Shown piece by piece: positions 8,246 through 12,610 of a stretch of 64,000 nucleotides of DNA. The position numbers and the translations under genes were made by a program. Source of the stretch: Escherichia phage slur02; the sequence record NC_028927.1. The stretch is one strand, 5' to 3'. Below the pieces are notes generated by a model. That model made no database searches. It saw nothing but the letters and a program-made list of their open reading frames with translations, and was not told the DNA's origin. How positions within the stretch are numbered: position 1 is the first letter of the stretch; each line of letters starts with the position of its first letter.

Positions 8246-9250
8246 TTAACTTACCAATTCAATCCAAGCCGGACGAAGTACATCTTGTACCATTTTAACT
8301 AATTCCTTTTTAATCAAAGAAGGATTATCCGCTTGAGTTAGAGTAATACCTTCACGAGAAGTTTCTTCCAAAATATCTTGAACAGTTAGTCCCATCACCT
8401 TTCCAAAATCTTTTGGACCAATTTCGCCAATTTTAGAAATAACGTTATTTACTCGGTTTAGTGTAACGTAACAAGCTAAAATCCCCACCAATTTGTTATC
8501 AGCTTCTGACAGTTCAACTTTAGCTTTAATAGGCTTATCAGACTTTTTCTTTTCACTAAATTTAGAATTCTTGCATTTGATGGCTACACGATTGCGATTA
8601 GGCAGCCAAGAAGGATAACAAGGTTTCAATACATATCCTTCAGCGGTAAATACTTCGCCTTTGGCTTCAGCTTTCCAAACACATTTGTTAGCGTCAATTA
8701 AACCTGCATTATCTACGGTAAAATTATAAGACGGAACAACAGAATCCAAATCATTTGGAAGTTTAATAAGATCTTCAAATTTACCACGACCCAAAAGTGG
8801 AGCGATTTTAAACCCAAATGAATTACAAAACGATTCCATCATGTAATCATCAACATAAGTTACATCACCACTTTCGGTAGTGACAATAATGTCAAATACA
8901 TAAAAATCTTTATCGCCATAATCAACATTCTTCTGAATGCCAGGTCCAGCGAATTCGCCAAAAACTTGATAAGTCACAACAGCTGAAGTTTCCATAATTT
9001 CTTGGACAGCTTTAATAGAATCTTCGTAATTCTTTAAAATAATTTCATAACCGAAGAAATCTTCAGCAGGAAGAATCGGTCCAGTACGTTTAGCGCAAGT
9101 TACTTTATCACGCTCAATAATCAATGAGAAATTTGTGCCGTGAATCTTTTCACGAGCTACCCATTCGCCGCCAGTCAATCCTAAGCTATAAAGTTTTTCA
9201 ATAAATTTAGAGTTGTAATGATTTTCAAGACTGCTATACTTTTTAAACAT
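8246..9250 (-). CDS. rnlB: RNA ligase 2 (Rnl2)
   Basis: 334 aa; nucleotidyltransferase motif I KIHGTN; position after gene 24 on the opposite strand as in T4. Confidence 0.9.
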
Positions 9251-9259
9251 AATTAATCC

Positions 9260-9538
9260 TCAAAATGTAATTTCTAACCAATCACCATCACGCTGATCAC
9301 TATTGACTTTAAAGCTGAATCCCTCTTTTCTCAGCCAATCACCAATTTCTTCAGTAATCAATTTATCGCGAGCAGTACAATAATAACTAAAATATGTTTT
9401 ACCTTGTTCAGCTGCTTTATTAGCAAGTTCTGAAAAATCTTTAATAAAACACTCTAGCTTAAACTGTTTACTTTTTAATGCTTTTTCACGTAATTGATTA
9501 GCAAAAGATTCATTTTCATAAAGATCATACTGTTCCAT
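9260..9538 (-). CDS. hypothetical protein (24.2-like)
   Basis: 92 aa ORF in the T4 24.2 position. Confidence 0.6.
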   Translation of the reverse strand: MEQYDLYENESFANQLREKALKSKQFKLECFIKDFSELANKAAEQGKTYFSYYCTARDKLITEEIGDWLRKEGFSFKVNSDQRDGDWLEITF

Positions 9539-9740
9539 TTTTCACCTTTTTATTGATATGTCTTTTTCTATAGACAACTTTTTCTCGAGTTTTAAATTTA
9601 TTCTTAGCAGTCATAGCTCGAGCCCATAATACAGCCACTTCTTTCGCCTGTAAGTTTAATTCACGAGCAATTTCAATGAATGACTTTCCAGACTCATGAA
9701 GAGTAAACACCACAACCTCAGTTCTCATAATCAATCTCAT
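9525..9740 (-). CDS. hypothetical small basic protein (24.3-like)
   Basis: 71 aa ORF overlapping the start of the 24.2-like ORF. Confidence 0.55.
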   Translation of the reverse strand: MRLIMRTEVVVFTLHESGKSFIEIARELNLQAKEVAVLWARAMTAKNKFKTREKVVYRKRHINKKVKNGTV

Positions 9741-9802: not shown

Positions 9803-9822
9803 AAGAAAGGGGCCGAAGCCCC
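9803..9822 (-). terminator. terminator downstream of hoc
   Basis: GGGGC-UUCG-GCCCC hairpin followed by UUUCUU on the minus strand. Confidence 0.55.
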
Positions 9823-9834
9823 TTATGATTATGA

Positions 9835-11253
9835 TTATGGATAGGTATAGATGATACCAGTTTCTAAAGCAGTTTTATGAATGATGTATCCATTACGTGA
9901 TTCTTGAACATCAACTTCTGGATAGTCTTTCATCATCTTCTGGAGAGTGTAACGATGCAAGTAGTACTTACTATCTGGATCGTCAGTTTTCCAATCTTTA
10001 CCTTCTTCAGTCATTTTTTGGATTTCATCCATAACCCACCAACCGCACCAGATGTAAGCTGAAGTACGATGTGGAAGAGGATGAACATAAGGCAATTCAC
10101 CTTCTGGCTCTGGAGCAACTTTATCAGTCACTTGAACTTGACCTTCTGCTGTAGTAGTTTTGCTATCATAATCAGCAGCAGTAACAGTTGCAGTAACTTC
10201 AATAGTTTGACTTCCAATAGATGAGGTATCAACGGTATACACGTTAGTTGACCCTTCTACAGGAGAAGAATCTTTCTTCCATGAATAAGCAATTTGTGCT
10301 TCTTCTGGTGCATCAGTGACATTAGCAGTAAATGTAGCCGAAGCATCTTGTTGAACGTTAATAGAAGGAGGAGTCAATGTAACCTGTGGATTCATTGTCT
10401 TCTTATTAACCGTTAATGATACTTCATTCGAAGTAACTTCCTTTTCATTGTAATTTTCAGCAGTTACTTGGGCTACGCATTTAATTCTTTTTACTCCACT
10501 TGTAGTTGGAGTATAGTTAAATGTAGAGTTAGTTTCTCCACCAACTTGTGAATCATCTACATACCACTGATACGTAGCAGACGCTCCAACGGGTTGAGAA
10601 GCTAAGGCAGCAGTAAATTGAACTAGTGTTCCAATTACTCCAGCTGAAGGACTATCAGGAGTTACTGCCAAAGTAGTTGTCTGTGTCTTTTTATTAACAG
10701 TCAGTGACACTTCATTAGAAGTAACTTCTTTTGCATCATAATCTGTCGCGGTTACTTGAGCCACACACTTAATTGTTTTAACTCCGCTTGTGTCAGGAGT
10801 GTAATTGAATGTAGCGCTAGTCGCTTCGCTCACAGGAGAACCGTCAACGTACCATTGATACGTAGCAGATGCGCCTGATGGCTGCGAAGCCAAAGCAGCG
10901 GTAAATTCAACAGCTGTTCCAATTACTCCAGCTGAAGGACTAGCAGGAGTTACAGCTAAGGTGGTCGTTTGTGTCTTATTTTGAACTGTGATAGTTGTAG
11001 TAGCTTCTGCTGTTTCAGCTTCAGTATCAGGAACTGGATTTGTTGCAACTACCTTAATAGTCTTTTGACCGGCAGGACCTTTTAGTACATAACTAAAAGT
11101 TGCAGACGTTTCTTCCTGTGGTGCATCATCAACAGTCCAAGCATATGTAATAGGTCCATCTCCAGTTTGACCACTGGGCGTAGCAGTAAACTGCTGAGTC
11201 TGATCTATAACTCCAGTAGGTGTTTTAGGAGTTATATCAACTGTAAAAGCCAT
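9835..11253 (-). CDS. hoc: Hoc outer capsid decoration protein with an extra tandem Ig-like domain
   Basis: 472 aa; Thr/Ser-rich Ig-like repeats plus a Trp-rich C-terminal capsid-binding region; two 96-aa units in perfect tandem. Confidence 0.85.
   Translation of the reverse strand: MAFTVDITPKTPTGVIDQTQQFTATPSGQTGDGPITYAWTVDDAPQEETSATFSYVLKGPAGQKTIKVVATNPVPDTEAETAEATTTITVQNKTQTTTLAVTPASPSAGVIGTAVEFTAALASQPSGASATYQWYVDGSPVSEATSATFNYTPDTSGVKTIKCVAQVTATDYDAKEVTSNEVSLTVNKKTQTTTLAVTPDSPSAGVIGTLVQFTAALASQPVGASATYQWYVDDSQVGGETNSTFNYTPTTSGVKRIKCVAQVTAENYNEKEVTSNEVSLTVNKKTMNPQVTLTPPSINVQQDASATFTANVTDAPEEAQIAYSWKKDSSPVEGSTNVYTVDTSSIGSQTIEVTATVTAADYDSKTTTAEGQVQVTDKVAPEPEGELPYVHPLPHRTSAYIWCGWWVMDEIQKMTEEGKDWKTDDPDSKYYLHRYTLQKMMKDYPEVDVQESRNGYIIHKTALETGIIYTYP
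10402..10689 (-). repeat. hoc internal tandem repeat, unit 2 (aa 189-284)
   Basis: Second 288-nt unit, about 82 percent identical in protein to unit 1, in frame and head to tail. Confidence 0.85.
10690..10977 (-). repeat. hoc internal tandem repeat, unit 1 (aa 93-188)
   Basis: 288-nt unit encoding KTQTTTLAVTPASPSAG...SLTVNK. Confidence 0.85.
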
Positions 11254-11262
11254 AAGTTATCC

Positions 11263-11943
11263 TTATTTTAATGTTACGAAAGAAGAATTGCGTGTTTCAC
11301 GAATTAAAACTGATCCGTCACGGTTAATGTAATAAATTAAGCTAAATAATGTTTGGTGTGCAGAAGCATGCTCAAAACTAGTTGGGTGAGATTTCCAATC
11401 CGGAGTTTCAGCGATCCATTGATAAATCCACCAAGGAACAGTACAGAATCCTGGATTTTTTCCAATCAACTGAAGATTCGGGCTAAAGTTTTCCGGAAGA
11501 GTAAATACACACGGCTTTTCAGATTCAATAATCTCAGCTACAGCCTGTTCGAATTTTTCTTCAACAAAAGGAGTATCTTCAATCAAAACATCGGTATTTT
11601 CAGGAATTTTATCCGTTTCTACTACTTCAATTTTAATGTCAGATTTAACTGGAGAATCAATCAAAAGTGCTGCTTCTGGATTGACTTCTTCATCGTCATA
11701 TTTTAATCCCTCTGCAGCATCAGCAGCATCAATTAAGTCTTTAATAGATAACCCATCAGTCTCTGGCATAGGTTCACTAGCGAGCTTCTGGAGGGCTTCT
11801 TCAATATCAACAACGATATTATCAAAAGATTTATTCTTTTTGACCTTTATACCAAACTGTTCAGCATATTCAGCTAATTTAGCTTTAGCTTCTTTATTAT
11901 CATCAAGAGCCTTCAGCTCTGCAATATAATCTTTATCTATCAT
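11263..11943 (-). CDS. inh: Inh, inhibitor of prohead protease (internal head protein-like)
   Basis: 226 aa acidic protein immediately after hoc, as in T4. Confidence 0.7.
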   Translation of the reverse strand: MIDKDYIAELKALDDNKEAKAKLAEYAEQFGIKVKKNKSFDNIVVDIEEALQKLASEPMPETDGLSIKDLIDAADAAEGLKYDDEEVNPEAALLIDSPVKSDIKIEVVETDKIPENTDVLIEDTPFVEEKFEQAVAEIIESEKPCVFTLPENFSPNLQLIGKNPGFCTVPWWIYQWIAETPDWKSHPTSFEHASAHQTLFSLIYYINRDGSVLIRETRNSSFVTLK

Positions 11944-11956
11944 AATATTTCCTCAG

Positions 11957-11964
11957 TATAAATA
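11957..11964 (+). promoter_or_regulatory. late-type promoter upstream of the seg endonuclease gene
   Basis: Exact TATAAATA 29 bp before the ATG at 11993. Confidence 0.5.
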
Positions 11965-11992: not shown

Positions 11993-12610
11993 ATGTACCA
12001 CTTTGTATATGAAACAACAAATCTAATAAATGGTAAAAAGTATATAGGAAAACACTCTACTGATGACTTGAATGATGGTTATCTTGGTTCCGGTAAGGCA
12101 ATTCAGCAGGCTATAAAGAAATATGGTGAAAACAATTTCTCTAGAACAATACTAAAAGAGTTTAAAACTTCCGAAGAAGCGTACATGTATGAAGAAAAAA
12201 TTATAACTCCTGAACTAATAAAAAGCAAAAATTACTATAATATGAAACCTGGTGGAATTGGTGGAATTGTTATGACTACAGATGTTATAGCAAAGATGAA
12301 AGAATCTTCCGCTAAAAGATTTGAAAACTCACCGGGCACGGTATTAGGTAAAACTTGTTATACTAATGGAACTAAAAATATTTTTATTAAACCTGGAGAA
12401 CTTGTTCCAGAAGGATTTGTAAAAGGGATGGTTCATCCTAATAGAAAGTCCAGAAAAGGATGTAAAGTCAAACCGACTACCACAGGAACTTTTTGGGTCA
12501 ATAATGGCGCAATAAATAAATTAATACAACCAGACGGTATTATTCCCGACGGATTTATTAAAGGTCGTCTCATGAAAAGAGATTCTAAAGGCAAATTTAG
12601 TAAGGCATAA
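11993..12610 (+). CDS. GIY-YIG homing endonuclease, Seg family
   Basis: N-terminal GIY-YIG module (YHFVYETTNL...GKKYIGKHS), 205 aa; sits between inh and uvsW where T4 carries a seg gene. Which seg ortholog it is cannot be decided from memory. Confidence 0.8.
   Translation: MYHFVYETTNLINGKKYIGKHSTDDLNDGYLGSGKAIQQAIKKYGENNFSRTILKEFKTSEEAYMYEEKIITPELIKSKNYYNMKPGGIGGIVMTTDVIAKMKESSAKRFENSPGTVLGKTCYTNGTKNIFIKPGELVPEGFVKGMVHPNRKSRKGCKVKPTTTGTFWVNNGAINKLIQPDGIIPDGFIKGRLMKRDSKGKFSKA

Follow-up and report, generated by a model that had tools for sequence, protein, structure and literature searches.

Two diverged copies of an Ig-like unit in the Hoc decoration protein of Escherichia phage slur02 and their variable number among Tequatrovirus relatives

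The hoc locus and the domain layout of its product

The hoc gene lies on the minus strand of the window, that is, the whole 64,000-nt stretch of Escherichia phage slur02 DNA analysed here (NC_028927.1). According to the ORFs and to the T4T and slur04 annotations, its surroundings read uvsW, segE, inh, hoc, 24.3, 24.2, rnlB, 24, which is the order found in T4, and the rnlB neighbour is represented by an ORF at 8246-9250 with a match to the Pfam RNA ligase 2 family. The gene, labelled "Hoc-like head decoration" in RefSeq, is 100% identical in nucleotide sequence to hoc of Escherichia phages slur04, slur11 and slur13 (species Tequatrovirus slur02) and, on the strength of this identity, it is called slur04 hoc in the comparisons that follow. 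The upstream gene product, Inh, shares 224 of its 226 residues with T4 Inh. Only 9 nt (11254-11262) separate inh from hoc, a gap that contains the ribosome-binding site AAGGA, and because it is so short the two genes are probably co-transcribed. Directly upstream of inh and of hoc, the minus strand holds no exact copy of the late-promoter motif TATAAATA; the sole nearby copy (11957-11964) is on the plus strand and points to segE. Sigma-70-like sites were not enriched. Past the hoc stop codon there is a terminator-like hairpin (Table 1), and the annotation of phage DalCa has a rho-independent terminator at the matching position.

Table 1. Coordinates of the features at the hoc locus (positions in the window)
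Feature	Position	Strand	Residues	Remarks
hoc CDS	9835..11253	−	472 aa	ORF; head outer capsid (decoration) protein; stop codon 9835-9837
inh	11263..11943	−	226 aa	ORF; inhibitor of prohead protease; immediately upstream of hoc
Domain 1 (D1)	10978..11253	−	aa 1-92	N-terminal, distal, Ig-like; 72/92 aa identical to T4 D1; model beta block 1-91
Unit A	10690..10977	−	aa 93-188	D2-type Ig-like/PKD, class A; Pfam PKD 101-160; beta block 99-187
Unit B	10402..10689	−	aa 189-284	D2-type Ig-like/PKD, class B; beta block 195-283
Domain 3 (D3)	10114..10401	−	aa 285-380	Ig-like; beta block 290-376, pLDDT about 90
C-terminal domain	9838..10113	−	aa 381-472	capsid-binding, role from PMC10385173
GTAACTCCTG in unit A	10944..10953	−		unit nt 25-34; 10 nt shared with unit B; A-to-B switch site of L012
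GTAACTCCTG in unit B	10656..10665	−		partner site of the inferred unequal crossover
Terminator-like hairpin	9807..9824	−		GC-rich, then T run; 10 nt past the hoc stop codon

The product carries the features by which Hoc proteins are recognised: a C-terminal capsid-binding domain that is homologous to about residues 281-376 of T4 Hoc and preceded by an N-terminal string of Ig-like domains, the genomic position, and an acidic isoelectric point. Its pI of 4.47, with a net charge of about −25 at pH 7 (4.68 and −15 for T4 Hoc), falls within the range of about 4-5 given for Hoc homologues (PMC10385173). A phmmer search of the PDB matched T4 Hoc only (5vf3, 8t1x and others, E = 4e-222), the alignment joining residues 202-472 of the query to residues 106-376 of the T4 chain.

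The middle of the gene is occupied by a tandem repeat. Tandem Repeats Finder reported it at 10396-10977, with a period of 288, 2.0 copies, 78% matches and a score of 710, and a direct-repeat search returned two 288-nt copies at a spacing of 288 nt. These copies, which we designate units A and B, adjoin in frame and head-to-tail, with neither spacer nor indel between them, and are identical at 221 of 288 nt (76.7%) and 79 of 96 residues (82.3%). When one unit was shuffled, 73.9 ± 7.4 positions matched, which places the observed match at a z of about 20, and the runner-up in-frame register within hoc gave only 118 matches out of 288. The in-frame comparison therefore agrees with the initial annotation as regards the position of the repeat (10402-10977), its 288-nt unit, the 82% protein identity, the head-to-tail arrangement and a Hoc length of 472 aa against 376 aa in T4.

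Pfam placed PKD and BiPBP_C above cut-off in this protein and Ig_2, Ig_3 and I-set just under it, D3 being matched by Ig_3/I-set at 289-373 below the curated cut-offs. The AlphaFold model, built from the single sequence with a mean pLDDT of 72, contains four all-beta blocks of beta-sandwich size, and its confidence dips at residues 94-96 and 189-192, corresponding to linkers; the C-terminal domain is poorly modelled and unreliable in it. The homologues available are at least 77% identical to the query, and for T4 Hoc a solved structure exists. Foldseek matched the model to chains of tandem Ig domains, including four-Ig fragments of Dscam, adhesin repeats and the RB49 Hoc fragment 3SHS. Taken together, these predictions describe a protein of five domains, namely four Ig-like domains and a capsid anchor, and support the earlier proposal that the repeat adds one Ig-like domain, in the form of a second copy of D2.

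T4 Hoc, as given in the T4T record and in the cryo-EM structures 5vf3, 8t1x and 8t9r, is a 376-aa protein with a single D2 unit at residues 93-188. It shares with slur04 Hoc the position between inh and 24.3, D1, D3, a near-identical C-terminal domain and its acidity, and differs from it in lacking the extra D2-type unit A, so that it has three instead of four Ig-like domains. The 92 C-terminal codons of the two genes are separated by about two non-synonymous differences (2.0 by the Nei-Gojobori count; dN 0.009), while D3 shows a dS of 0.32. T4 D2 is closer to unit B (259/288 nt) than to unit A (227/288 nt), but has a block close to the 3′ end that is A-like.

Age and prevalence of the A/B pair

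The 67 nucleotide differences between units A and B are distributed as 10, 12 and 45 over first, second and third codon positions. By the Nei-Gojobori method the pair has a pS of 0.63, a dS of 1.37, which is near saturation, a dN of 0.108 and an omega of 0.078, values that point to retention of both units under purifying selection. Orthologous domains of slur04 and T4 Hoc show a dS of only 0.23-0.37 and, therefore, the A and B sequences split long before slur04 and T4 did, with the reservation that dS dates the split of the sequences and not necessarily the moment at which they became neighbours. A similar picture emerged across arrays in general: in all 55 unit pairs from 39 multi-unit cluster representatives, within-array identity ranged from 56 to 85% at the amino acid level and no pair was near-identical, so that no array looks newly duplicated.

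We then determined how widely the two-unit form is distributed. A tblastn search of 50,697 phage records gave 189 full-length matches at 90% or more amino acid identity, and a megablast search with hoc matched 657 phage records. In an evenly spaced sample of 60 of these 657, in which unit number was taken from the length of the match, 20 records held two units (1419 nt), 34 held one (1131 nt; T4, T6, RB10 and PNJ-6 among them) and one, CCU7, held three (1704 nt); one further record was the published PNJ-9 variant without D3 (852 nt) and the remaining four matched in the C-terminal domain only. The two-unit form is thus typical of Tequatrovirus, being present in about one third of records, with some 57% carrying one unit and few carrying three. 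The best 120 clusters of a protein set grouped at 90% identity, a step that over-represents pairs sharing their flanks but not their arrays, fell into three length groups: 376/379 aa (82 proteins), 468/472 aa (31) and 568/570 aa (8). With an HMM of the unit, exactly one, two and three units, respectively, were detected in these groups, and protein length accordingly tracks unit count.

The 472-aa Hocs of AR1, Yersinia phage PST, PinkRuby, teqhal and Serratia phage PhiZZ30 have an architecture identical to that of slur04, with A followed by B, and at 89-97.5% nucleotide or amino acid identity over the full length they differ from it only by point changes and mosaic unit segments. The three-unit Hocs of 568/570 aa (Escherichia phages UGKSEcP1/2 and CCU7) have the same flanks and units of the same family in the order A, B, C; their third unit, mostly of class C, is what slur04 Hoc lacks.

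Altogether 168 units could be sorted into three sequence classes, A, B and C, which are best separated by residues 44-69, although 23 of the 168 were called with a margin of less than 3 of 26. Class A is marked by the signature ...GSPVSEATSATF..., class B by ...DDSQVGGETNSTF... and class C by ...GSLVDGETTTTF...VGAKTV...; the middle segment of slur04 unit A matches class A at 25 of 26 positions. The 39 arrays were ordered AB (27), ABC (6), AC (2), BC (2) and ABA (2), and none of them had the order BA, CA or CB, which means that A before B before C was kept in 37. Among the 82 single-unit proteins, 63 carried a class B unit, 17 a class A unit and 2 a class C unit. Between phages, the units are mosaic in three variable segments.

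These observations bear on the origin of the pair, which the initial annotation had by implication attributed to a recent duplication while naming the same domain count and repeat in close relatives as the sign of a lineage-typical array. A tandem duplication confined to the slur04 lineage, by which a T4-like Hoc with three Ig-like domains gained a further one, would agree with the exact in-frame, head-to-tail 288-nt units without a spacer and with the single unit of the reference phage T4, but it is very improbable: the units are just 76.7% identical in nucleotide sequence, with a dS of 1.37, near-identical units occur in none of the multi-unit Hocs examined, and the A|B array is present in about 200 GenBank records from phages of Escherichia, Shigella, Yersinia, Serratia and Salmonella. 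Neither near-identical synonymous sites nor absence from close relatives, the two marks of a young duplication, is found in the A/B pair, and the 189 full-length matches at 90% amino acid identity or above are relatives of exactly the kind that the annotation had named; with a dS of that size and an array in about one third of Tequatrovirus records, its recent-duplication reading was abandoned. Even less credence can be given to an artefact of assembly or annotation, whether through a wrongly assembled repeat or through the fusion of reads. Short reads can indeed mis-assemble repeats, but units at 77% identity are too unlike for an assembler to collapse or expand them, the same 1419-nt gene recurs in hundreds of independently sequenced genomes, and purifying selection acts on its intact reading frame. 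The sharp differences between arrays of genomes whose flanks are 100% identical (see below) could also bring to mind targeted hypervariation, whether by a diversity-generating retroelement or by way of positive selection for novel specificities of binding, as the source of the A/B differences. Such an origin is scarcely conceivable when these differences are mostly synonymous (45 of 67 at third codon positions, omega 0.08) and the variation looks like existing blocks reshuffled at clean switch points and not like scattered mutagenesis. Because of the deep divergence in dS and the presence of the repeat in close relatives, A and B are best regarded, as far as their sequences tell, as an old paralogous pair typical of the lineage and not as a recent duplication.

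Recombination and the direction of copy-number change

Evidence that unit number changes while the flanks stay the same came from a set formed by vB_Eco_Geo, UoN_LDJ77_1 and two metagenome contigs. In this set D1 (276/276 nt) and D3-D4 (567/567 nt) are identical and the upstream sequence is at least 98.7% identical, yet the number of units is 1, 2, 2 and 3, and the units themselves differ by 4-23% in nucleotide sequence. The single unit of Geo consists of about 80 nt of LDJ77 unit 1 continued by unit 2. When GenBank records were ranked by closeness to the Geo locus, one-unit and two-unit forms were interleaved among the nearest. In the same line, at least 26 changes in unit number were required on a tree of the flanks of 120 proteins, compared with a mean of 34.6 when labels were shuffled, a parsimony count that is only indicative, as the tree is a rough neighbour-joining tree of 280 flanking residues that ignores recombination. 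There is thus hardly any coupling between unit number and the flanks.

The clearest case is a near-isogenic one, a 376-aa Hoc (P0080, encoded at locus L012) whose single unit is identical to slur04 unit B at all 96 residues. Its D1 (92/92 aa) is likewise identical to that of slur04, D3-D4 match at 185 of 188 residues and, at the nucleotide level, the upstream region is identical at 1490 of 1500 positions and D1 at 276 of 276. The first 24 nt of the L012 unit, by contrast with its protein sequence, hold all six of the synonymous variants specific to A found there, and from nt 35 on the unit is that of B, with zero other differences. Between the two segments lies GTAACTCCTG, a stretch of which the 64-kb window has just two copies, one per unit (Table 1). 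Both marks of a copy-number-variable array are therefore present in these phages, that is, differing counts on identical flanks and a chimeric unit with a single switch point. L012 hoc is what an unequal crossover between units A and B of a slur04-like array should leave, with exactly 288 nt deleted. Since a change in the opposite direction could not supply the remainder of unit A, the two-unit hoc is the ancestral form and the one-unit hoc the derived one in the L012/slur04 lineage. The longest stretches without a mismatch between A and B measure 28, 14, 11 and 10 nt, and the synonymous divergence of the units may slow the collapse of the array in a phage whose homologous recombination is very active.

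A different origin of the array has to be weighed at this point, in which it was first joined, perhaps repeatedly, by out-of-register recombination between co-infecting phages carrying diverged allelic D2 units, and would be younger than dS suggests. Classes A, B and C all occur as single-unit alleles (17, 63 and 2 of 82 representatives), the units are strongly mosaic between phages and exchange is heavy, as the 26 or more copy-number changes against 34.6 with shuffled labels indicate, all of which speaks for such a joining. The constant order in 37 of 39 arrays, without BA, CA or CB, is nevertheless better fitted by one ancestral array, and the chimeric single units with an A head and a B tail in L012 and Geo are products of an array and not its precursors. 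We consequently regard the joining of allelic units as unlikely, if clearly less so than the alternatives discussed above. In our judgement it is very probable that D2 of the slur04 Tequatrovirus hoc consists of a pair of old paralogous units, A and B, each maintained separately within a five-domain fibre, and that their copy number changes by recombination. A broader proposal, which we advance tentatively, is that the D2 region descends from an ancestral A-B or A-B-C array and behaves as an evolutionary accordion that unequal recombination has repeatedly collapsed and perhaps re-expanded in genomes identical elsewhere, the three-Ig Hoc of T4 being a collapsed derivative, and that unit number tunes the reach of the fibre and its D2 glycan- or cell-binding surfaces to the habitat. 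Short forms like that of T4 may thus be collapsed ones.

Other Hoc proteins have changed in domain number by different routes. The proteins of Klebsiella phage vB_VIPKPNOM02, at 468 aa, and of Dhakavirus dhabil, at 470 aa, likewise comprise four Ig-like domains and the conserved C-terminal domain. Here, however, it is D3 and not, as in slur04, D2 that has been copied (77% and 60% amino acid identity to the adjoining D3, respectively), so that the duplication in these phages is an independent one; sister phages of the Klebsiella and Dhakavirus groups have forms one domain shorter, of 374 and 375 aa. In the Tequatrovirus DalCa, with a Hoc of 471 aa, the D2 pair is far more diverged than in slur04, at 41% amino acid identity. 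The D3-copy forms together with the diverged D2 pair of DalCa show that gain and loss of Hoc domains is recurrent and involves different domains.

A predicted longer Hoc fibre and its significance

In T4, one Hoc monomer sits at the centre of each gp23* hexamer, bound through its C-terminal domain, and its Ig-like domains form a fibre about 180 Å long (PMC10385173). By homology, the near-invariant C-terminal domain of slur04 Hoc would anchor one monomer at the centre of each hexamer of the major capsid protein, and four Ig-like domains would project outward compared with the three of T4, lengthening the fibre by roughly one domain (~45 Å), from about 180 Å to about 225 Å. Tequatrovirus Hocs in general bear one to three D2 units of three classes in the conserved order A, B, C, and the copy number shifts when units undergo unequal homologous recombination and when phages exchange sequence.

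The additional unit would also supply a second D2 surface, including its S-L-T motif, and could in this way raise the reach or the avidity of weak adhesion. Ig-like domains 2 and 3 are reported to bind E. coli surfaces (PMC10385173). Binding of PNJ-9 Hoc to MUC2 has been mapped to D2 residues S183-L184-T185 (PMC11853027), while that of PNJ-6 Hoc has been mapped to D1 residues E29 and G33 (PMC11150434), D2 of PNJ-6 showing no MUC2 binding despite conservation of the residues (PMC11150434, PMC11853027). In slur04 Hoc an SLT motif is found at 183-185 and again at 279-281, and the positions equivalent to the PNJ-6 site are occupied by Q at 29 and G at 33 (E29/G33 in PNJ-6; PMC11150434). Both SLT copies correspond in sequence to the PNJ-9 MUC2 site (PMC11853027), and we treat them as a candidate mucin-binding motif only.

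Variation in the number of Hoc Ig-like domains has already been published (PMC10385173, PMC11853027, PMC13435897). It ranges from 1 to 10 among 650 Hoc homologues (PMC10385173), and the examples include the Hoc of Serratia phage Muldoon with 10 Ig-like domains (PMC10385173), a five-domain Hoc-like protein of Klebsiella phage PMBT63 (PMC13435897) and the three-domain Hoc of PNJ-9, which lacks D3 (PMC11853027). PNJ-9 and Muldoon Hoc share with slur04 Hoc the principle of a conserved capsid anchor joined to a variable number of Ig-like domains, but the domains gained or lost are others, and neither protein is closely similar in sequence to the slur04 units. Our full-text literature search found no description of the Tequatrovirus D2 A/B/C array or of its copy-number polymorphism, an absence that is not proof of novelty. 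The hoc gene of the window adds little in itself, because it is already annotated and its architecture is common (about one third of the genus). What the comparison contributes is a modest addition, consisting of the ordered A/B/C classes, a polymorphism of one to three copies on identical flanks and a clean crossover product.

Hoc serves as a scaffold for T4 phage display and vaccines and as a model protein for the adherence of phages to mucus, and it is for those who engineer or study it that these results may be of practical use. Recombination can remove tandem Ig units that have been engineered into T4 Hoc, and synonymous recoding, of the kind seen in the natural units, would guard against this. 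Moreover, nature already offers near relatives with one, two and three D2 copies that interconvert by simple recombination, and these near-isogenic length variants are ready for testing how fibre length and domain number relate to mucus adherence.

Hoc forms with additional Ig-like domains

Hoc proteins of 568 or 570 aa, carrying three D2 units, were represented by the protein clusters P0001-P0008 and by PV806175 (H156), and the third unit belonged to sequence class C in most cases. Examples of three-unit Hoc came from Escherichia phages UGKSEcP1/2 and CCU7.

We also found that Klebsiella phages and Dhakavirus phages have their own pairs of four-Ig and three-Ig Hoc. In the four-Ig form of these phages the extra domain copies D3, whereas that of the window Hoc is of D2 type; the duplication in the Klebsiella and Dhakavirus proteins is therefore independent. 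In addition, phage dhabil carries a second Hoc-annotated gene just downstream of its own hoc and in reverse orientation. Two Hoc-like genes each have been described in the Muldoon and PG7 genomes (PMC10385173).

Location of hoc genes, neighbouring genes and the near-isogenic locus
Feature	Location	Strand	Remarks
Klebsiella/Dhakavirus hoc, four-Ig and three-Ig forms	L004:301-1707; L005:301-1713; L006:289-1413; L007:295-1422
Second gene annotated head outer capsid protein (hoc of JS10)	L005:1987-2004 (MN850621 dhabil_241)	opposite to hoc
segE-like GIY-YIG homing endonuclease gene	window 11993-12610	+	between inh and uvsW
24.3-like gene (DUF2774)	window 9525-9740		downstream of hoc; 71 aa
Near-isogenic one-unit locus L012	GCA_042243735.1, contig ABVAJE010000001.1		167,389 bp

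Source labels of the hoc records

Whole T4-like phage contigs were filed within assemblies of bacterial genomes, those of Shigella sonnei and E. coli (L012; Hoc clusters P0031, P0044 and P0080). The source name of P0031, a 472-aa Hoc cluster, is 'endonuclease [Shigella sonnei]', a label that probably reflects phage carry-over together with mis-annotation. Near-identical Tequatrovirus hoc genes were also present in records whose labels name Serratia, Proteus or Pseudomonas as the phage host (PhiZZ30, Isf-Pm2 and vB_PSGBLB0006; H80/H81, H98 and H148), host labels that are atypical for Tequatrovirus.

Sequence context of hoc

The T4 late-promoter motif TATAAATA occurred 18 times in the whole 64-kb window, compared with 8.8 ± 3.0 expected copies, a count that no shuffle reached. 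On the minus strand, scanning of the same 64 kb located no copy immediately upstream of either inh or hoc. The 24.3-like gene adjoining hoc shows a small length polymorphism, its product being 71 aa long in the window and in vB_Eco_Geo (L008) and 67 aa in T4, UoN_LDJ77_1, the metagenome contigs L010 and L011, and L012.

The product of the segE-like gene was identical to T4 SegE at 204 of 205 aa. This gene was missing at the otherwise similar loci L008-L011, where inh directly adjoins uvsW, and was found at L012, indicating that segE presence is polymorphic. Co-conversion of the nearby hoc array could accompany the repair of SegE-made breaks.
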